IMG/VR virus record: IMGVR_UViG_3300031344_000001
DNA length: 64,000 bases
Strand: one strand, 5' to 3'
Source: a virus
Taxonomy: Duplodnaviria; Heunggongvirae; Uroviricota; Caudoviricetes
Below the pieces are notes generated by a model, which was not told the DNA's origin, made no database searches, and was given only the letters and a program-made list of their open reading frames with translations. Positions 2,804 to 60,268 of the stretch are shown here, one piece after another (the first letter of the stretch is position 1; each line of letters starts with the position of its first letter). Both the position numbers and the translations under genes were made by a program.

Positions 2804-3061
2804 TCACTGCCAGTCCCCGTGCGGCCAGTCCCCGCGCTCGACGCGCTCGGCCGCCTTCAGCTGGATTCCCCGCGAGGTCCCGTCGCCGTCGCAGACGTGG
2901 CAGCAGGCCCGCCGCGCCAGCTCTTCGATCTCCCAGGGTGCCCCCAGCTGGATCGCGGCAGAGCGCAGGAACGTGCGCGCGCCCTCCTCGTAGAACTCCA
3001 GCGCCGCTGCGTGGCGCAGCAGCTCGACGACTCTCGCACGTTGGGCGGTTGGCAAGGGCAT
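2804..3061 (-). CDS. Hypothetical protein (85 aa)
   Basis: ORF track; CHVC motif. Confidence 0.55.
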   Translation of the reverse strand: MPLPTAQRARVVELLRHAAALEFYEEGARTFLRSAAIQLGAPWEIEELARRACCHVCDGDGTSRGIQLKAAERVERGDWPHGDWQ

Positions 3062-3070
3062 GGTGGGTTC

Positions 3071-3352
3071 CTAGTCGTAGGGGTCGTACGTGCGGACGAC
3101 CCGGGGTTCGTCACCGTCGAGGTAGATGACGGGGGAGAGCTTCGTGCGATCGCGCATGGCGCGTTTCATGTCGACGAGGAACTCGTCCGTGATCGCCGGC
3201 AGGTCTTTCGGTGCGACGACGATGACGATCTCGAGGTCGAAGCGCCCGTGGTGCCGCAGGAGGTTCGCGGTGTCCTTGTCCGCGCAGCGCTCCTCGACGC
3301 GCGCCATGAGCCATTGCATGTGTTCTCGATCGACCGGGACCTTGTGCACCAC
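3071..3352 (-). CDS. Hypothetical protein (93 aa)
   Basis: ORF track; GAGGTGG upstream. Confidence 0.55.
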   Translation of the reverse strand: MVHKVPVDREHMQWLMARVEERCADKDTANLLRHHGRFDLEIVIVVAPKDLPAITDEFLVDMKRAMRDRTKLSPVIYLDGDEPRVVRTYDPYD

Positions 3353-18214: not shown

Positions 18215-18448
18215 GTGGCGATCTGGGTCTGCACGTGCTGCCGGACCGAGGGCACCGCGCTGCACGCGCACGGTACGTATTGCACGGTGCACCCGGACGC
18301 GCCGGTCGTGCCGCGCCCGCCGCCGCTCGGTGACCCGGGCGGCGAGGACTGCACTGGGCCCACGGTCAAGGCGGCGGTCCTCGCGGCCTACCGCACGCGC
18401 GGAGGCGTCGTCTACGACCTCGCGCTCAAGCTCTACGGAGAGGCGTAG
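18215..18448 (+). CDS. Small Cys/His-rich protein
   Basis: CTCC..H.HGTYC..H. Confidence 0.5.
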   Translation: MAIWVCTCCRTEGTALHAHGTYCTVHPDAPVVPRPPPLGDPGGEDCTGPTVKAAVLAAYRTRGGVVYDLALKLYGEA

Positions 18449-18454
18449 TTCGTC

Positions 18455-18730
18455 GTGGGGCAGGACGCGCTCGTCGCGCTCGTCGCTGCCAAGGCGCGGC
18501 TGCGCACGCACGACATCGAAGGCGCCCCGTTCGCCATCGGGCTCCGAGTCACCGTCGTCGCGGCGTCCGACGAGACGGCCAAGCCCGAGTTCATGGGGCG
18601 GTCCGGCGTGATCGAGCACTACGAGTACGACTGCGGCTGCGAGCAGACCTTCCCAGAAGATCCGATGATCGGTGTCCGCTTCGATGACGGCCAGCTCGAA
18701 GAGTTCTGGCCCGAGGAACTTGCGGCCTGA
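18455..18730 (+). CDS. carS: CarS-like antirepressor (SH3 fold)
   Basis: HDIEGAPFAIGLRVTVV..FMGRSGVI..FPEDPMIGV..FWPEEL is colinear with recalled Myxococcus CarS (HDVDGAPVRIGAKVKVV..FLGQTGIV..YPDDPLIQV..FFPEEL). Confidence 0.75.
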   Translation: MGQDALVALVAAKARLRTHDIEGAPFAIGLRVTVVAASDETAKPEFMGRSGVIEHYEYDCGCEQTFPEDPMIGVRFDDGQLEEFWPEELAA

Positions 18731-18818
18731 TAGTCCAGAATTTTGCGGGCCTTCTGAGGAGTGCTGAGGAGCGCTGAGAAGGCCAAGATCAGACCTTCCG
18801 CCCCGGCGGCGTCTTGGG

Positions 18819-19152
18819 CATGCTTATCCGGTTAACACCCCTACTGCGAGGACAATGCCATGAGTGATCCACAGGGAACGTTTGCTTGGCTCGTTGTGGT
18901 GCGTGATGGGACCGGCACGGTTTCCGATTCGGAGGACTGGCCGGCCGGCTCACCGCTTTATCAGTGCGCAGGTGGTTGGACTCACGACGTTCTCAAGGCG
19001 CTGCGATACGCGCGATCTGAGGACGCCTTAGCCGTTGCCATCAACCGCAACAACGGCTGGCCGTGGGGCGCCCGAGCAATCATCGAGGAGCACGGTTTCG
19101 CTCCGCTAACAACTCCGGTCATCCTGTGAGGGGTGAAAACCGGATAGGCATG
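18819..19152. mobile_element. Mini gene cassette 1 (MITE/MIC-like): 23-bp TIRs, 8-bp TSD
   Basis: CATGCTTATCCGGTTAACACCCC (18819-18841) and inverted GGGGTGAAAACCGGATAGGCATG (19130-19152); GTCTTGGG direct repeat at 18811-18818 and 19153-19160. Confidence 0.85.
18860..19129 (+). CDS. Cargo ORF of cassette 1 (89 aa)
   Basis: GAGGA RBS; stop abuts the right TIR. Confidence 0.65.
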   Translation: MSDPQGTFAWLVVVRDGTGTVSDSEDWPAGSPLYQCAGGWTHDVLKALRYARSEDALAVAINRNNGWPWGARAIIEEHGFAPLTTPVIL

Positions 19153-19181
19153 GTCTTGGGTGAGACTCGCGAGAGGAGAAC

Positions 19182-19694
19182 GTGATGGCCAACGGCAAGA
19201 AGAGCGGCGCGCAACTCGACCGTGAGGTCAATGACATCTTGGCGGCGCGCCAGAAGCGCGAGGCTCGCGGACAAGCGCCCAAGGCCAAGCCGCAGTCGTC
19301 CGGCATCCCTAGCCAGGCGGACTACGAGCGCCGCGAGCTGGACGAGGCCAACCGGAAGCTCCGCGAGGTCGAGAAGGCACCGCTCGCCGACCGCAAGGAG
19401 GCCGCCGACGAGTTCTTCGAGGCGATGCGCGACGACCCGGCGTTGGTCGCAGAGCGCCTCCGGTGGCTCCTGGACGGCAACTACGGCTACGGGTCGATGC
19501 TGATGGCCAAGCGCATCCTGAAGAGTCCGCGCATGAACCGCAGCGCGGCGCTCACGCACATGATCGCAGCCTTCGAGTGGTCTGCGCCGGGACCGCTGGT
19601 GATGGCGGCCTGGAAGAAGCTGACGAAGGGGCAGCAGGCCGCGCTGGAGAAGGTGGTGCAGGCCGAGATCCGCAGCGCGGAGCGCGAGGAATAG
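19182..19694 (+). CDS. Hypothetical protein with N-terminal KKSGAQLDREV motif
   Basis: ORF track; GAGAGGAG RBS; ATG 19185 is an alternative start. Confidence 0.7.
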   Translation: MMANGKKSGAQLDREVNDILAARQKREARGQAPKAKPQSSGIPSQADYERRELDEANRKLREVEKAPLADRKEAADEFFEAMRDDPALVAERLRWLLDGNYGYGSMLMAKRILKSPRMNRSAALTHMIAAFEWSAPGPLVMAAWKKLTKGQQAALEKVVQAEIRSAEREE

Positions 19695-19698
19695 AGAC

Positions 19699-20199
19699 GT
19701 GGCGCGCTCGGGGCCGAAGAAGAAGACGGCCAAGCAGCTCGACCGCGAGGTCGCGGCTGTGCTGGCGAAGGGCAACGGCAACGGCGGCGGCATGGAGCGC
19801 GCGACGCGCGATCGGGTCCACGAGCCGCTCGTCGGCGAGCGCGTCGCACGTCGCACTCCGGTCGAGGTCACGCTGCTCGCCGATGTCGGTCCCGAGCCCT
19901 GGGAGTTGGTCTTCACCGCGGGCAAGAACTTCGGCGGGGCTCGAGCGGGCCGGATCCTGATCGTGCTTCCTGGTAGTGGACCGACCGATCCGTTGGCAGG
20001 ACTCGCCTACGCCGTCGAGCACGGGCGCGCCTACGTCCACCACGTGTGGGTCGACCCCGAGGCGCGCGGGCGCGGGCTGTCTCAGGTCTTGTTCGACGCT
20101 TACCGATCGGAGGTCACGCCCGAGCTGGTCGTGGTCGGTCCGTTCACGAAGGCTGGACGGGCGGCGGCGGAGCGCGCGGGCGCGATGATCGAGGAGTAG
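19699..20199 (+). CDS. GNAT-like acetyltransferase with KKTAKQLDREV leader
   Basis: AYVHHVWVDPEARGRGLSQVLFDAY resembles GNAT motif A. Confidence 0.6.
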   Translation: MARSGPKKKTAKQLDREVAAVLAKGNGNGGGMERATRDRVHEPLVGERVARRTPVEVTLLADVGPEPWELVFTAGKNFGGARAGRILIVLPGSGPTDPLAGLAYAVEHGRAYVHHVWVDPEARGRGLSQVLFDAYRSEVTPELVVVGPFTKAGRAAAERAGAMIEE

Positions 20200-20200
20200 C

Positions 20201-20944
20201 TCAGGCGCTATTCAGCGCGGGGCTATCGCTGACGTCGTTGTCGTCGTCGGCATCATCGACGTCAGCGTTGATCGCGTCCTCGTCGAGCTCCTGGGGGTCC
20301 GGTGGAGCGCTGGTCTTGGCGTCCTTGCGCGCGAGCTGCTCCTGGGCCTGGGCCTGAACCTGCGCCTTTTTGGTCGCGATCGCCTTCTGCACGACGCCGG
20401 GCTTGGGCGCGATCAGCATCGTCATGCGCCGCCCGTCGAGGTTCGGCGCGGCCTCCACCGCGGAGAGGTCCTTGCAGCGTTCCACCACGCGGTCGAGGAC
20501 GCTCTTGCCCACTTGGGGGTGCGCCATCTCGCGACCGCGGAACACGACGACGAGCCGGACCTTGTTGCCCTCTTCGAGGAAGCGCCGGACGTGCTTGACC
20601 TTGAAGTCCATGTCGTGGCCCTCGGTCTTCGGCCGGAACTTGATCTCCTTCGTCTCGAAGGTCGTCGTGTTCTTGCGCTGCTGCTGCTTCTTCTTCGCCT
20701 CCTCGAACTTGAACTTGCCGTGGTCCATGATCCGGCACACTGGGGGCAGCGCGGTCGGCGAGATCTCGACGAGGTCGAGGCCCTTGTCTTCGGCGAGGCG
20801 CAGCGCCTGGTGCGTCGGCATGACGCCGAGCTGCTCACCCTCGTGGATGACGCGCACTTCGGTGGCGCGGATGCGGTGGTTGACGCGGTGCCCGGTCTGG
20901 GGGCGGCGGCGGTCGAAGCGGCCGGAGTTGGGGCGGCCGTTCAT
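20201..20944 (-). CDS. infC: Translation initiation factor IF-3 with C-terminal extension
   Basis: RVNHRIRATEVRVI, LDLVEISP..PPVCRIMDHGKFKFE, KEIKFRPK..HD..FK.KH.RRFLEEGNKVR. Confidence 0.95.
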   Translation of the reverse strand: MNGRPNSGRFDRRRPQTGHRVNHRIRATEVRVIHEGEQLGVMPTHQALRLAEDKGLDLVEISPTALPPVCRIMDHGKFKFEEAKKKQQQRKNTTTFETKEIKFRPKTEGHDMDFKVKHVRRFLEEGNKVRLVVVFRGREMAHPQVGKSVLDRVVERCKDLSAVEAAPNLDGRRMTMLIAPKPGVVQKAIATKKAQVQAQAQEQLARKDAKTSAPPDPQELDEDAINADVDDADDDNDVSDSPALNSA

Positions 20945-53100: not shown

Positions 53101-56100
53101 CGTGGACGTGGGCACACCCGTCGTCGAGACCCCCGCGAGCACAGCACCGATCGTCAACTGGTCGAGACCACCGCGAGGTCTCGCATTGATTGTGACCGCT
53201 CGGGTCACCCACCATCTGCCGTGACACGATCTTGTCGAGACCACCGCGAGGTCTCGCATCGATTGTGCCGACGGACGCGGACGTCGTCGAGAAATGTCGG
53301 CCCTTGTCGAGACCACCGCGAGGTCTCGCATCGATCATCGATCGTGCCTTGCCACGACTACGCATGTGGCTCGGCGGGTCTGCGCGTGGGGCCACACCTC
53401 GGACTGGTCGAGACCACCGCGAGGTCTCGCATCGATCATGCCGTTACCTGCTAAGACGGTAAGCAGGGAGGTCGTCGAGACCACTGCGAGGTCTCGCAGC
53501 GATCGTGCCCGTGAGGTCTCGCCCCTGCGACGTTGGGATCGGTCGTTGGTCGAGACTACCGCAAGGTCTCGCATCGATCGTGCCGCAACAGAATTCGTGA
53601 CGGCGCCGATACTCGGAGCGGTCGAGACCACCGCGAGGTCTCGCAGCGATCGTGCCCAGGCATCTATCAAGGCTACGCTTGCACGGGCGCTCGTCGAGAC
53701 CACCGCAAGGTCTCGCATCGATCGTGCCCTTTGCTGTCATGTGTCCTCTTCTTCCTTCTTCCTTGCAGGTTGTCGAGACCATCGCGAGGTCTCGCATCGA
53801 TCGTGCCGCGCGGTCGCGCCGTCGCGCGGGACGCGATGCTGTAGTCGAGACCACCGCGAGGTCTCGCATCGATCGTGCCGCTCGCGTAGCGAGGTGCCAA
53901 CGGCGTTCTTACGAGGTCGAGACCACCGCGAGGTCTCGCATCGATCGTGCCGCCCAGGAGCGTCAGAGTGTCGACCATTTCGCCGTGTCGAGACCACCGC
54001 GAGGTCTCGCATCGATCGTGCCGTTCAACCCGCACTCGGGCAAGCACAAGACGCTCGGTCGAGACCACCGCCGTGACGGATGAGCCTGTTGCTGTTGGGC
54101 AGGCCTACGTCGTATTGGTCGAGACCACCGCGAGGTCTCGCATCGATCGTGCCCTGGCTGTCCTTAAGACGAGGCCCCTATGGACCGAGAGTCGAGACCA
54201 CCGCGAGGTCTCGACCACATGGCTCCGGCTCTGGTCGAGACCACCGCGAGGTCTCGCATCGATCGTGCCGTCTCCACGTTCACGCCGCCCTCCCACGCGA
54301 GCCAGTCGAGACCACCGCGCGGTCTCGCATCGATCGTGCCGTGCCACGTGCCACGTGCCACAGCAGCAGCGAGCCCAGACTAGACAGTTCGTCGAGACCA
54401 CCGGGAGGTCTCGCATCGATCGTGCCAGTCGGTCGCTTGACCATGGCTAACCTCAAAAATGTGTCGAGACCACCGCGAGGTCTCGCATCGGTCGTGCCCT
54501 CGATACGGACCCGAGAAACGGAAACTGGTTTTTCAGTCGAGACCACCGCGAGGTCTCTCATCGATCGTGCCGGCCAAGTCTTCCTCGGTCGTCGAGCGCC
54601 CGCCGGCCTTGTCGAGACCGCCGCGAGGTCTCGCATCGATCGTCGATCGTGCCCTCTTGTAGACCCAGCCGTGTAGCCGATAGAGCTGCTTGTCGAGACC
54701 ACCGCGAGGTCTCGCATCGATCGTGCCGTCTCGTCGCTCGCCATGCTCGCCGGCACACCGAACCCGTCGAGACCACCGCGAGGTCTCGCATCGATCGTGC
54801 TCCCAGGCGAGCGAGTCGAGGTAGTCGCGGACCGGGTGGGTCGAGACCACCGCGAGGTCTCGCATCGATCGTGCCGCACGCGGGCGCGCGCTCGGTGTCG
54901 TTGACCGTTGACCGAGGAGGTCGAGACCACCGCGAGGTCTCGCATCGATCGTGCCGCCGTGCAATTGCGGACGGCCGATCTACTTCCGGTGGTCGAGACC
55001 ACCGCGAGGTCTCGCAATCGATCGTGCCGGTCGAGAGTGCGTGACCGAAAACACGGAACCGGAGGCTGGTCGAGACCACCACGAGGTCTCGCATCGATCG
55101 TGCCGTACAGGTTCGCCGTGGTGCCCTTGGGCGCACCGTAGTCGAGACTACCACGTCATAGCGGCCGTCGAGACCACCGCGAGGTCTCGCATTGATCGTG
55201 CCGCGACCTCGTCGAGGTGCCGCTCGTCGTTCATTCTTGTCGAGACCACCGCGAGGTCTCGCATCGATCGTGCCTTGCCTAGCCGCCGAGGCGTTCGGCG
55301 ACAAGACAGCGGGTCGAGACCACCGCGAGGTCTCGCATCGATCGTGCCGCGGCCGGGCAGGAGGGCAGGAAGTTGAACGTCGAGTCAACTTTGTCGAGAC
55401 CACCGCGAGGTCTCGCATCGATCGTGCCGAACGCCGAACACTGCTGAGCGGCAGGCGATACTCCTAGGGCAGTCGAGACCACCGCGAGGTCTCGCATCGT
55501 CGCATCGCTCGTGCCTGCAACGCGCGGTTCGCTCAGCGGGGGTTGGAGGTGGTCGAGACCACTGCGAGGTCTCGCATCGATCGTGCCCGCGACTCGTTCG
55601 TCGTTCGCCGCGTCGGCCGTAGTGCGCCGGGTCGAGACCACTGCGAGGTCTCGCATCGATCGTGCCACGCGCGCCAAGTCGGTCCAACTAAGAGCCCCAA
55701 TCGTTGTCGAGACCACCGCGAGGTCTCGCATCGATCGTGCCCAGCCGACCGAATTCGCCACTGCATTTACGACGCTGTGTCGAGACCACCGAGAGGTCTC
55801 GCATCGATCGTGCCGAACGCGGGCGCGTCGGGCTCGAGTTCGTTCCATTGGTCGAGACCACCGCGAGGTCTCGCATCGATCGTGCCGCGCGCATCGTGCG
55901 GCAAGCGTGCGGCAAGCGTGCGGCATGAGCTTGTCGAGACCGCCGCGAGGTCTCGCATCGATCGTGCCTTATCGTCGGACTTGCCGATCCCGAGCTGCCC
56001 TTTTGTCGAGATCACTAGGTCTCACATCGATCGTGCCGGTTATGGCGCCCTCGTTGTCGCAGTGCCCGTTCTCGTCGAGACCACCGCGAGGTCTCGCATC

Positions 56101-58007
56101 GATCGTGCCGATCGTCGACGTGGAACGTGGAGGCGCGTTGGCGCAACCGGAAGTCGAGACCACCGCGAGGTCTCGCATCGATTGTGCCCGTCGCGCGCTC
56201 GCCCGATATCGATGAGCCCAACGTGTCGAGACCACCGCGAGGTCTCGCATCGATCGTGCCGGGAAGTAGGCTGCACATGAGTCGATGGCCGTTCTGCGTG
56301 TCGAGACCACCGCGAGGTCTCGCATCGATCGTGCCGTCTAACGTGGCTGCTCACCGGAGCCGTGGTTCGCTGTCGAGACCACAGCGAGGTCTCGCATCGA
56401 TCGTGCCTCGGGAATTCCAAGACCTCCGTCAGCGGTTCCTCTCGTCGAGACCACAGCGAGGTCTCGCATCGATCGTGCCGGTGTCAAACGTGCGATGGAA
56501 CAGGCGGAGGTTTAGGTCGAGACCACCGCGAGGTCTCGCATCGATCGTGCCTGAACACGTTCTTGCCGTTGGCGCCTTCGCCATAATGGTCGAGACCACC
56601 GCGAGGTCTCGCATCGATCGTGCCGTTGTGCAGACACTTTGCCGTAACGACGCCGGTGTCGTCGAGACCACCGCGAGGTCTCGCATCGATCGTGCCGAAC
56701 GACTCGAAGGTCGCGACATCGACGCATCTGTCGTCGAGACCACCGCGAGGTCTCGCATCGATCGTGCCCGCGTGCGAAGCAGAGATGCCCTCGAGCAGTC
56801 GCTCGTCGAGACCACCGCGAGGTCTCGCATCGATCGTGCCGCTGCGCGACCGCGACGAAGCTCGTCGTCCTCATAGATGCTCACGTCACGTCGAGACCAC
56901 CGCGAGGTCTCGCATCGATCGTGCCACAGGAGTAGACACGGATCCACGGAGGAACCAATGGGTCGAGACCACAGCGAGGTCTCGCATCGACGACGTGATC
57001 GCCCGTTGGTCGAGACCACCGCGAGGTCTCGCATCGATCGTGCCAGGTCGGGCTGGACCTTGGCAGTCGAGACCGCTGCGAGGTCTCGCATCGATCGTGC
57101 CGAAAGCGGCCGGGTCGGGCGCGGGCGCGATCTGCGCGTCGAGACCCCCGTGAGGTCTCGCGTCTCGCATCGATCGTGCTGTTCAGGATCTCAGCCGCAG
57201 CGAGCGAGGTGTCTATGTCGAGATGTCGAGACCACCGCGAGGTCTCGCATCGATCGTGCCCAGCAACGAACCCGGGCTAGAGAGTTCGAACCCATGTCGA
57301 GAGTCGAGACCACCGCGAGGTCTCGCATCGATCGTGCCGATCGCCGCCGCGATTGAAGCAGCGCTCGTCTCTGGCGTCGAGACCACCGCGAGGTCTCGCA
57401 TCGATCGTGCCTGATCTGAGCGGCCTTGTCGATCGGCTCAAGGTCGAGACCACCGCGAGGTCTCGCATCGATCGTGCCGGCTCGGACGCATGACCAAGAG
57501 CGTTACGTTCGATGTGTCGAGACCACCGCGAGGTGCCATGACCTCACCATAGCGCGCCCGCGATCGTGCCGACGAACCCGAATTCCTCCGCCGAGGACAA
57601 TCCGTAGGTGTCGAGACCACCGCGAGGTCTCGCATCGATCGTGCCGGGGCTTGGGCTCGATCCGCGCTACACGATCTCGTCGTCGAGACCACCGCGAGGT
57701 CTCGCATCGATTGTGCCCGCCTGACGGTACGCCGCCGGGGCGGAGGGCTGCGTGTCGAGACCACCGCGAGGTCTCGCATCGATTGTGCCCTCGACCGTCT
57801 CGTGCCAGCCCTTCGGGATTCGCACGTCGAGACCACCGCGAGGTCTCGCATCGATTGTGCCCACTCTCGTGGTCTCGTGGCAATACCCACTCGACGTGCG
57901 TCGAGACCACCGCGAGGTCTCGCATCGATTGTGCCGCGCCGCTTGTCCGGTGGCGACCAGGACTTCAGGATGTCGAGACCACCGCGAGGTCTCGCATCGA
58001 TTGTGCC
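50113..58007 (-). CRISPR. CRISPR array A, about 105 x 36-nt repeats including partial copies
   Basis: + strand GTCGAGACCACCGCGAGGTCTCGCATCGAT(C/T)GTGCC; minus strand GGCACGATCGATG-CGAGACC-TCGCGGT-GGTCTCG-AC; variation mostly in the 7-nt loop; most regular near 58 kb, degenerate near 50-52 kb. Confidence 0.98.
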
Positions 58008-58028
58008 TTCGATTGTCAGAGAACGAAC

Positions 58029-58300
58029 CATGCTTATCCGGTTGTCACCCCTCGCGGGCGCGACGGATCTCCTTGATCTTTCGCTCGGCGCGCTTCGCAG
58101 AGGCTCGCCATTCAGCGAGAGCTTCCGTTGGGGTGAATTCTTGAATCGTTCCGCCGACGTTGATCACGGACGGTCGCTTGCCCAGAGAGGCGGAAAGAAG
58201 CTCGCCCATTTCGGAGCGGATGATTTTAAGTTCACGTTCGAGTCGCGATGCCATTTGATGTCTCCCTGATCACGTTTGGGGTGTTAACCGGATAAGCATG
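58029..58300. mobile_element. Mini gene cassette 2 (MITE/MIC-like) inserted in the CRISPR leader
   Basis: CATGCTTATCCGGTTGTCACCCC (58029-58051) and inverted GGGGTGTTAACCGGATAAGCATG (58278-58300); GAACGAAC direct repeat at 58021-58028 and 58301-58308. Confidence 0.85.
58045..58254 (-). CDS. Cargo ORF of cassette 2 (69 aa, helical)
   Basis: GGGAG RBS; TGA stop lies inside the TIR. Confidence 0.65.
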   Translation of the reverse strand: MASRLERELKIIRSEMGELLSASLGKRPSVINVGGTIQEFTPTEALAEWRASAKRAERKIKEIRRAREG

Positions 58301-58312
58301 GAACGAACGATC

Positions 58313-60268
58313 CTACGGCGTTGCGGGGCTCGGCGCGAGCGGCTGCTGGTCCTTCCGCCGGTTCCGCCGCGCCGGGGCCTTCTTCTTCGTCGAAGGTGCC
58401 GGAACCTTGGGGTCGAGCGGCCACCCGCTCTCGCCGCGCGCGACGGCGCTCGCGGCGGCGAGCAGGTTTCGGCTCATCGTGATGTCCTGGTCCTCGGCGT
58501 GGCCGCAGTTCTCGCAGCGGATCACCCGCTGCACCCGGTCTTCCCGCGAGACGTCGCGGTGGTGACCGCAGGCCGCGCAGTCGAGCGTCCCACCGGCAGC
58601 GTCGACCTCCAGGTCGACGCTGCCGTACTTCTTCGCGAAGTAGCCGACGCGGGCGCGGGCGCGCCCGGGCCCCAGGATGTTCACGCGGCGCGCCGTCTTC
58701 TTGCGCAGCTTCTGCTCGTCCTCGTCGTGCTGGTCGTCCTTCTCGACGAGGCCGGTCACGTCGAAGTCGTCGCGGGCGACGACCCCGTAGCGCTTGGCCA
58801 GCTGGACCGCGACCGCGGTGACGCGGCCCTCGACCTGGCGCTGCATGCGCTCGAGGCTCGGCACCTCGCGGTGGAGCAGGTGGACGTCCTGCTTGCTCCA
58901 CGCCTCCAGCGCCGCGAAGGCCGGCTGGTCGCCGTGGATGCGCTGGTCTCGCCACTGCCGGTGCAGGCGGACGTACTTGCTGGGGGCCCGCCAGTTGTGC
59001 ATGTGGCGGCTCTCTTCGCGGAGCCACGACGTCGCCGGCAGCGACCGGGCGTAGGCGAGGATCATGTCGCGGAGCACGTCCTGGTTCTGGTCGCGGATCG
59101 AATGGATCGAGTCGGCCCAGGGTTTCACACCGAGCACGTCCTCGGGGATCACGAGTTGCCCCCAGAGCGGGCTCGCGGGGTCGTTGGGGTCGAGTGGCGC
59201 GGTGGCGCTCCACGTGAGCAGGCGGATGCCCGCCTTCTTGCCCTCCTCGTCGAAGAGCTGACGCCAGCCGATGTGGACGGCGACCGCGTCGTGCGGGTGC
59301 GGGTGCGGGGTGGTCACGGCCACGGAGCCCTCGACCTCAAGCGTGAGGTACCAGCGGTAGCGGAGCCCGGTGCGCTCGCGCCGGACCACGGCCCACTTGA
59401 CGACGTCGTGCCCGAGCTGGAGGCGGTTCTTCGTGCGCGGGGACTGGTGCAGGAGCAGGTGCATCTGGGCCCAAATCGGGCGGATGGTGCCCGGCACAGT
59501 CCCGACGCGGATCGCGAGCGCGTGGAAGCGCTTGCCCTTCGTGGCGGCCTCTCCCGCGCGCGGCCCGATCTTGATGACGTCTCCCGGGTTCCCGGCGACG
59601 TCGATCGCGCGCCCCTCGGCGTCGACCGCGGCGGGTCGGAAGTGGTCGACCGGGGCACCCAGCGAGTACGCGACCGATCCGATGCGCAGCCAAGACCCTT
59701 CGCCGCCGATGAGATCGTCGGCGTAGACGGACTTCTTGGCGGGAAGTGTCTTGCCGGTCCGCGCGTCGATGCGCGCGTTCTGCCGCTGGAACTGGACGGC
59801 GATGCGGCCCACGTCCGGGGGGAAGTCCGTCCCCACGAACGTGGTCCGGCCGTTTTCGTCGATGAGCCCTGCCTTGTCGATCGTGCGCCGCGCGAAGTCG
59901 GCCGCGTCGTCCGCCTTGCCGAGCGTCCCCCACATGGCTCCCGCCTCGATCGTCGCGTCGCGCACGGCCTTGAGCGCGCGCTTCTTCCCCGCGAACACGC
60001 GCTCGCGGAGGGCCTTGAACTCGTCAGAGGCGTGCCACGCATCGCGGGCAGCTTTCCCAGCCTCCGACTTCCACCACGCGCCACGCGCTTCGACGGGTAC
60101 GTCCCTGGCCGGGTAGTCGATGAGCGCGCGCCGGAGGAAGCGCTCGCGGTTCTCGATGAGCGCGATCTGTCGGCGGTAGCGCGCGCCGAGGCGCACCTGC
60201 TCGCGCAAGCAATGGTCGTCGGCGGCCGTCGCCGGGAGACAGAGGAACTTGTACACGCGCATCGTCAT
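58313..60268 (-). CDS. cas12m: Cas12m-like (type V-U1/V-M) effector 2 with inactive-type RuvC H-D-D (651 aa)
   Basis: GRIAVQFQRQ, RuvC-I VAVHIGWR, NWRAPSKYVRL, WSKQDVHL, RuvC-II VVARDD, CAAC..CENC zinc finger, RuvC-III EDQDITMSRNLL; same H/D/D pattern recalled for MmCas12m; upstream of array A. Confidence 0.85.
   Translation of the reverse strand: MTMRVYKFLCLPATAADDHCLREQVRLGARYRRQIALIENRERFLRRALIDYPARDVPVEARGAWWKSEAGKAARDAWHASDEFKALRERVFAGKKRALKAVRDATIEAGAMWGTLGKADDAADFARRTIDKAGLIDENGRTTFVGTDFPPDVGRIAVQFQRQNARIDARTGKTLPAKKSVYADDLIGGEGSWLRIGSVAYSLGAPVDHFRPAAVDAEGRAIDVAGNPGDVIKIGPRAGEAATKGKRFHALAIRVGTVPGTIRPIWAQMHLLLHQSPRTKNRLQLGHDVVKWAVVRRERTGLRYRWYLTLEVEGSVAVTTPHPHPHDAVAVHIGWRQLFDEEGKKAGIRLLTWSATAPLDPNDPASPLWGQLVIPEDVLGVKPWADSIHSIRDQNQDVLRDMILAYARSLPATSWLREESRHMHNWRAPSKYVRLHRQWRDQRIHGDQPAFAALEAWSKQDVHLLHREVPSLERMQRQVEGRVTAVAVQLAKRYGVVARDDFDVTGLVEKDDQHDEDEQKLRKKTARRVNILGPGRARARVGYFAKKYGSVDLEVDAAGGTLDCAACGHHRDVSREDRVQRVIRCENCGHAEDQDITMSRNLLAAASAVARGESGWPLDPKVPAPSTKKKAPARRNRRKDQQPLAPSPATP

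Follow-up and report, generated by a model that had tools for sequence, protein, structure and literature searches.

Organization of two single-gene cassettes

The window analysed here is a 64-kb stretch of DNA from an uncultivated huge phage of soil, whose phage-like genome measures at least 461 kb, the length of the longest contig recorded with the protein of cargo gene 1. Two short elements lie within it, each bounded by 23-bp terminal inverted repeats (TIRs), flanked by an 8-bp target-site duplication and containing one small open reading frame (ORF). The features of the two loci are as follows.

18811..18818: target-site duplication of cassette 1, left copy, GTCTTGGG
18819..19152: cassette 1, 334 bp, with GTCTTGGG on both flanks
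18819..18841, plus strand: inverted end of cassette 1 on the cargo-upstream side, CATGCTTATCCGGTTAACACCCC
18860..19129, plus strand: cargo gene 1, encoding 89 aa; GAGGA lies 7 nt upstream, and the TGA stop abuts the inverted end
19130..19152, minus strand: inverted end of cassette 1 on the cargo-downstream side, CATGCCTATCCGGTTTTCACCCC on the minus strand
19153..19160: target-site duplication of cassette 1, right copy, GTCTTGGG
57972..58007, minus strand: CRISPR repeat nearest to cassette 2, the first of the array; 13 nt lie between it and the duplicated 8-mer
58021..58028: target-site duplication of cassette 2, CRISPR-array side, GAACGAAC
58029..58300: cassette 2, 272 bp, with GAACGAAC on both flanks
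58029..58051, plus strand: inverted end of cassette 2 on the cargo-downstream side, holding the cargo stop codon
58045..58254, minus strand: cargo gene 2, encoding 69 aa; GGGAGA lies upstream, and the TGA stop falls inside the GGGGTGA of the inverted end
58278..58300, minus strand: inverted end of cassette 2 on the cargo-upstream side
58301..58308: target-site duplication of cassette 2, cas12 side, GAACGAAC
58313..60268, minus strand: Cas12-like effector gene, 651 aa, PF07282, whose stop codon (58313-58315) is 4 nt from the duplicated 8-mer

The first-pass annotation had described two elements of 334 and 272 bp with 23-bp TIRs and one end identical between them, each with its own perfect 8-bp duplication and each filled by an ORF that is led by a ribosome-binding site (RBS) and stops at or in the TIR. 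This description was reproduced to the base: both duplications were read at their sites, and the ORFs at 18860-19129 and 58045-58254 account for 81% of cassette 1 and 77% of cassette 2, respectively. The end common to both cassettes is the cargo-upstream one, the reverse complement of 58278-58300 being identical to 18819-18841. A search of the 64-kb window with the 23-nt pattern CATGCYTATCCGGTTNNCACCCC, allowing up to 3 mismatches, returned 4 matches, which are exactly the four cassette ends (chance expectation: 0 matches in 100 shuffles). The same annotation had seen no cognate transposase, and in agreement with this, tblastn of the 64-kb window with a cognate transposase, which belongs to the IS1595 family, detected no IS1595 transposase (best E 1.9).

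Cassette 1 lies within a plus-strand operon and cassette 2 between the minus-strand Cas12-like gene and the minus-strand CRISPR array, both being co-directional with their neighbours. Once cassette 2 is subtracted, the cas12 stop codon and the first CRISPR repeat are 25 nt apart. An identical effector is encoded by 14 contigs, and the 69-aa gene is found just downstream of it in 5/5 places shown; hence the insertion of cassette 2 is tolerated inside the effector-array unit. Cassette 2 is probably transcribed inside this unit.

Several other features of these loci were recorded. The CRISPR array (55500-58007), directly downstream of the 651-aa Cas12-like gene, is large, with a 36-nt repeat that starts GTCGAGACCACCGCGAGG and has a stem-loop at its 3' end on the minus strand. 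Downstream of cassette 1, the proteins encoded at 19182-19694 and 19699-20199 (plus strand) both start with a K-x-x-A-(Q/K)-L-D-R-E-V peptide, and the gene at 20201-20944 (minus strand) encodes a phage homologue of translation initiation factor IF3 (PF05198, PF00707; gene table of the identical contigs L126-L128).

Transposases encoded between the same ends

IMG/VR viral contigs were scanned with the 23-mer and then with its 15-nt tip, returning more than 120 loci. An element was called where inward-facing tips could be paired and the flanking 8-mers matched, which gave 77 elements in the first pass. After later scans the catalogue comprises 123 non-redundant elements, ranging from 101 to 3978 bp, with perfect 8-bp duplications in 123/123. 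The 23-mer CATGCTTATCCGGTTAACACCCC of the window also terminates cassettes in four of the other loci (L001, L007, L138 and L144).

Where elements with these tips reach 1.0-2.0 kb, they contain a gene for a ~300-350-aa protein that matches IS1595 transposase profiles: the ISXO2-like DDE domain PF12762 (DDE_Tnp_IS1595, E 8e-35), the zinc ribbon PF12760 (Zn_ribbon_IS1595, E 2e-13) and NCBIfam NF033547 'IS1595 family transposase' (E 7e-56). The two Pfam domains were matched by the transposases of L114, L113 and L080, and NF033547 by those of L114, L228 and L169. In the nearest autonomous elements (L030, L023 and L080), 20-21 of the 23 end positions are the same as in the window cassettes, and the autonomous relatives L030 and L113 also carry passenger genes. 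The closest named element in PLSDB is ISAcr1 from Acidiphilium (61% protein identity); its copy on pACMV6 has the tips CTTGCCTATCCGGTT, which are identical to the cassette tips at 13/15 positions, and the 8-bp duplication GAATCAGC. Among deposited phage genomes, the TIR search gave chance-level matches only, and the transposase gave 2 distant matches.

The ISSod11 subgroup of IS1595 has the end consensus nnnGCnTATC and a length of 1.0-1.1 kb in ISfinder. The tips CATGCTTATC fit this consensus, and the minimal autonomous copies are 1005-1093 bp long, so that, judged by ends and length, the cassettes may belong to this subgroup.

In the literature, what defines the IS1595 family is the combination of 8-bp duplications with a zinc finger and a DDE domain (PMC8101967). 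The window elements have the 8-bp duplication and TIRs in common with transposase-encoding elements; what they lack is a transposase gene of their own, for which there is no room in 272-334 bp, and they are therefore referred to here as IS1595 derivatives and not as ISs proper. Since their ends and 8-bp duplications are those of elements encoding IS1595 transposases, they are assigned to IS1595 and not to IS4/IS231. We conclude, with a probability of about 0.85, that both elements are non-autonomous IS1595-family derivatives with ISAcr1-like ends, in which a single small passenger gene replaces the transposase gene. They are mobile insertion cassettes (MICs) in the broad sense, as they have IS ends around a passenger gene, no transposase, and evidence of transposition.

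The proposal of the first-pass annotation, non-autonomous single-gene mobile cassettes likened to the IS231-derived MICs of the IS4 family, thus survives in its first part, for which a partner, several sites and an empty site are now available, and has to be corrected in its second, the transposases being of the IS1595 family. It had named two absences as refuting, and neither was borne out: a transposase sharing the ends is provided by the IS1595 transposases lying between the same ends with 8-bp duplications, and an empty allele with a single 8-mer is described below.

Additional insertion sites and an empty site

Insertions of the 272-bp cassette occupy different sites in different genomes. 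It is also present at 3955-4226 of L138, a 321-kb contig, where it occupies a different site with the duplication GAGACAAC. The same cassette also lies in an NCBI MAG contig (L142) and at 3010-3280 of an ENA contig (L144), and there are decayed one-ended copies (L139-L141 and L143) and a homologue of cargo gene 2 without ends (L145).

For cassette 1, Logan contigs of four bog-metagenome runs were placed on positions 18300-19700. A single low-depth contig from run X15 (212 nt, depth 2.6) joins 18810 directly to 19153, skipping 342 bp (334 + 8) with 8 letters that fit both sides and no mismatches, and hence represents the exact empty site of cassette 1. The filled allele is represented by another X15 contig, lying inside cassette 1, and by a contig from run X17 that spans the right end of cassette 1.

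Both cassettes are present in every contig of this phage that was recovered by protein look-ups, and look-ups of identical neighbours returned filled sites only. The identical cargo-1 protein is encoded on at least 23 metagenome contigs, always in cassette 1 at the same site, and the element was seen in many rhizosphere and bog metagenomes. Among the fetched loci, blastn of the joined flanks gave no empty sites, and no relatives of the cassette neighbours (the Cas12-like gene and a 170-aa neighbour) were found in viral contigs.

The two cargo proteins

The homologues of cargo gene 2 are 80-96% identical. Across five copies, pairwise dN/dS is 0.05-0.19 with dS of 0.2-0.8, a signature of purifying selection on cargo gene 2, and over the same divergence the 23-bp ends are nearly unchanged. 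The low ratios and the near-constant ends together argue that selection maintains both the cargo-2 protein and the ends. The AlphaFold model of this protein consists of a helix, a beta-hairpin and a second helix (pLDDT 94.8). The protein has no Pfam, PHROG or significant PDB match, and in a fold search it resembled prefoldin beta subunits and lambda gpW only weakly (best E 0.16).

Homologues of cargo gene 1 with 66-67% identity occur in L136 and L137 as ordinary operon genes without inverted ends; for this reason, cargo 1 looks like a phage gene that was captured into a cassette. Its AlphaFold model is a small alpha/beta domain (pLDDT 76.6). This protein, too, is without a Pfam, PHROG or significant PDB match; a fold search (Atlas, Foldseek) gave weak DUF2849-like matches only, and a profile-free search of 1.84 billion representatives returned 8 relatives, 0/8 of which are annotated.

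Architecture, cargo and expression of related cassettes

Among the cassettes of 200-1000 bp, 74/87 are filled to 60% or more of their length by one ORF. In these 74, the median interval is 43 nt from tip to start codon and 22 nt from stop codon to the other tip; in 52/74 the stop codon falls in the terminal 30 nt, where the end has its fixed TGA/TAA positions. The RBS directly follows the inverted end, leaving no obvious room for a promoter.

The cargo is extremely diverse, forming ~160 sequence clusters when the two longest ORFs of each element are considered. A Pfam scan of 88 cargo ORFs identified N6/N4, D12 and C5 DNA methylases and other methyltransferases, as well as Mom, the restriction-alleviation protein Lar, PAPS-reductase-like enzymes, a HAD hydrolase and TnpB; ~80% of the cargo is without a Pfam family. 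These matches support a bias of the cassette family towards anti-restriction cargo and say nothing direct about the two window proteins. By association with the cargo of the sister cassettes, the window cargo proteins are most likely small accessory factors in phage-host conflict.

In one cassette of 1156 bp (L060:1253-2408), which has IS1595-type ends and is flanked by an 8-bp duplication, the sole cargo is a TnpB (OrfB_IS605 with a Cas12f1-like TNB domain). Here the gene for an RNA-guided nuclease is carried in the shell of another transposon.

A sigma-70 promoter scan around both cassettes revealed no promoter-like site; the promoters of the host may differ from the sigma-70 model. A terminator scan of the same regions gave one weak hairpin, inside cargo 2 on the minus strand and within chance expectation. 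As no promoter was recognised, the leader is ~40 nt long and the cassettes are co-directional with their neighbours, we infer that the cargo genes are expressed by read-through.

The same tips were also found in bacterial and archaeal genomes, where they bound minimal ISs of ~1.0 kb and non-coding MITEs of 101-184 bp. The genome contigs were scanned with the 15-mer (596 Gb), and as ~1,000 chance matches were expected, a locus was accepted only if it had both paired ends and duplications. Non-coding MITEs of 101-171 bp with perfect 8-bp duplications include L198, L205, L253, L262 and L285, from Terriglobia, Nitrospira and Burkholderiales MAGs. Given these MITEs and minimal ISs, the cassette family looks ordinary in cellular genomes.

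Target preference and tandem arrays

Alignment of 87 solo sites gave a weak palindromic target profile, RT-N-[RWWYRWWY]-N-AY, in which R and T occupy positions -3 and -2, the duplication itself reads RWWYRWWY, and A and Y follow at +2 and +3. The duplication of cassette 2, GAACGAAC, fits RWWYRWWY at 8/8 positions, and that of cassette 1, GTCTTGGG, at 3/8.

Some cassettes are stacked in tandem. At L144:2063-3753, at least four complete cassettes (215, 412, 296 and 271 bp) lie head to tail, with a fifth reaching the contig end, and the same 8-mer, GATCGTTT, separates all units. One of these units is a sister of cassette 2, and another carries a DUF7448/phrog_2650 protein. A second array, at L009:723-7213 of a 255-kb viral contig, has larger units of 2474 and 3978 bp separated by GAATGGAC; its cargo includes a 512-aa protein without annotation and two paralogous proteins of ~540 aa that are rich in CxxC motifs and weakly match the DUF4379 treble clef. 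A metagenome scan with a degenerate pattern, two abutted ends 8 bp apart, yielded 31 more array loci, and the exact back-to-back junction pattern gave 0 matches in viral contigs.

Of the array members with both flanks visible, 32/46 have an identical 8-mer on both sides, which they thus have in common with the adjoining cassette, and 13/46 have different ones (L150, L161, L147 and others). Different flanking 8-mers are not explained by simple successive insertion, which suggests recombination between cassettes or intramolecular transposition. A resident cassette may favour renewed insertion at its own duplicated 8-mer, because the ...ATG / CAT... tips recreate the -3/-2 and +2/+3 flanks of the target. 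Cargo orientation within arrays was the same in 5 pairs, opposite in 2 and ambiguous in 8, numbers too small to claim co-orientation.

Proposed mechanism and alternative explanations

We hypothesize that the cassettes are recognised at their ends of ~23-30 bp by an IS1595 DDE transposase supplied from outside the window, which could come from the host chromosome, a co-infecting phage, or the remaining part of the genome of at least 461 kb. The cassette would then be inserted at an 8-bp staggered cut with the weak palindromic preference given above. With ~40 nt including the RBS between the end and the start codon, and no recognisable promoter, the cargo would probably be expressed by read-through from the phage operon. 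We know of no demonstration of trans-mobilisation, or of a cut-and-paste mode, for any IS1595 cassette.

In one alternative reading, the elements are IS4-family (IS231-type) MICs that depend on an IS4/IS231-like transposase for their movement. Three points would suit this origin: cassettes that lack a transposase and carry passenger genes are known above all, as the textbook case, from IS231-derived MICs; the tips of IS231 partly resemble those of the cassettes; and the cassette tips begin with CATGC. However, every transposase found between CATGCTTATCCGGTT ends belongs to the IS1595 family, the 8-bp duplication in 123/123 elements is a hallmark of IS1595 (PMC8101967), and the tips of the named IS1595 element ISAcr1 are nearly identical to those of the cassettes, so that an IS4/IS231 origin appears very improbable. 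In the strict sense of an IS231/IS4-derived element, the term MIC is ruled out for the window cassettes, all cognate transposases being IS1595-family.

Somewhat less remote, but still unlikely, is the view that the two elements are dead relics, that is, decayed MITE-like remnants with fortuitous ORFs, fixed and no longer mobile or functional. The dN/dS of 0.05-0.19 for cargo 2 across copies at different sites and the conservation of cargo 1 homologues as ordinary phage genes are hard to reconcile with fortuitous ORFs, even though chance ORFs are frequent in high G+C DNA. Decayed one-ended copies do exist elsewhere, but all four 23-bp ends are intact although dS between copies reaches 0.2-0.8. 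The lack of a transposase in the window and the presence of both insertions in every contig of this phage that protein look-ups recovered speak for this view; the coexistence of empty and filled alleles in bog metagenomes speaks against it. In a weaker form of this view, the cassettes may be currently immobile in this phage for lack of a transposase. The window elements are also not MITEs, their interiors being ORFs with the cargo 2 ratios and the conserved cargo 1 homologues just mentioned.

The stacking of single-ORF, apparently promoterless units head to tail (L144, L009 and the 31 metagenome loci) is reminiscent of integrons, and the inverted ends might in principle be site-specific recombination sites. 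This we regard as the least credible of the alternatives: TIRs with a duplicated 8-mer that varies from site to site are the mark that DDE transposition leaves and attC x attI recombination does not; the enzyme encoded by the autonomous versions is a DDE transposase rather than an integrase; and solo insertions are scattered over unrelated intergenic sites. The designation integron gene cassette was rejected for the same elements, which have TIRs and 8-bp duplications and a DDE transposase as the partner enzyme. Transposition of non-autonomous IS1595 derivatives, each carrying one passenger gene, is thus the reading that we retain.

Beyond the two window elements, we tentatively suggest, at rather less than even odds, that phages may carry a transposase-driven counterpart of the integron, in which promoterless single-ORF IS1595 cassettes, their start and stop codons fitted to the inverted ends, would insert preferentially into the 8-bp duplication beside a resident cassette, where the tips recreate the preferred target flanks. 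The resulting arrays would be read through from a phage promoter and would serve the exchange of anti-defence and other accessory genes among unrelated phages.

Significance and comparison with known systems

Passenger-gene IS1595 elements, MICs, MITEs, and restriction-modification (RM) genes between inverted repeats with target duplications are already known. In our literature search, neither transposase-less single-gene cassettes derived from IS1595 in phages nor their tandem arrays turned up, and the window cassettes belong to a large and apparently undescribed population of single-gene cassettes of the IS1595 type, by which accessory genes pass from phage to phage.

The swapping of small accessory genes among phages, such as those for anti-restriction and anti-defence functions, is today largely explained by inter-phage recombination, and tiny transposable single-gene cassettes would be a second route for this exchange. 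They mark a pool of uncharacterised proteins kept moving by selection, and the ends would serve as a bioinformatic flag, since any small ORF between them is a candidate for a portable function of benefit to phages. For IS1595 transposases, the mechanism of which has been little studied, the tandem arrays together with the palindromic target point to a testable targeting rule. Lying between a Cas12-like gene and a CRISPR array, cassette 2 also offers a natural test of how insertions are tolerated or exploited in a highly transcribed locus.

Passenger genes are carried by some ISs of the IS1595 family (Siguier, Gagnevin and Chandler 2009, cited in PMC2853133 and PMC8101967). The window elements resemble IS1595 ISs in their 8-bp duplication, in their nnnGCnTATCCGGTT tips and in having autonomous relatives with a zinc-ribbon and DDE_Tnp_IS1595 transposase, and differ from them in being phage-borne and transposase-less, with a length of 272-334 bp and an interior that consists of one small passenger ORF. 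RM units between inverted repeats with target duplication have also been reported, and a 'non-autonomous transposon' moved in trans was considered for them (Furuta, Abe and Kobayashi 2010, PMC2853133). These units share with the cassettes the placement of defence or modification genes between inverted repeats and a target duplication; unlike the cassettes, they are, in the available part of that paper, located on bacterial chromosomes and not tied to IS1595 ends, with no tiny single-ORF cassettes and no phage context.

Bacterial MITEs are of similar size and likewise lack a transposase, whereas the window elements are protein-coding. Among phages, the mycobacteriophage elements MPME1/2, said to have been described by Sampson et al. 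in 2009, are reportedly ~440 bp long, with 11-bp repeats and a single ORF thought to be a transposase. They are similar to the cassettes as very small, TIR-bounded mobile elements in phage genomes but are not known to form a family with interchangeable cargo.

Integron cassettes are comparable in being small, mostly promoterless single-gene units with diverse cargo and stacked arrays; in contrast, the window elements have no attC and no integrase, and their insertion is that of a DDE transposase, with an 8-bp duplication. The MIC231 elements, which are IS231-derived MICs of the Bacillus cereus group, are like the window cassettes in lacking a transposase, in having IS ends around passenger genes and in their presumed mobilisation in trans. 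The window cassettes differ from them in belonging to IS1595 rather than IS4, in their 8-bp duplication, in being much smaller and phage-borne, in having a single ORF with its start and stop tight against the ends, and in belonging to a cassette family that forms tandem arrays.
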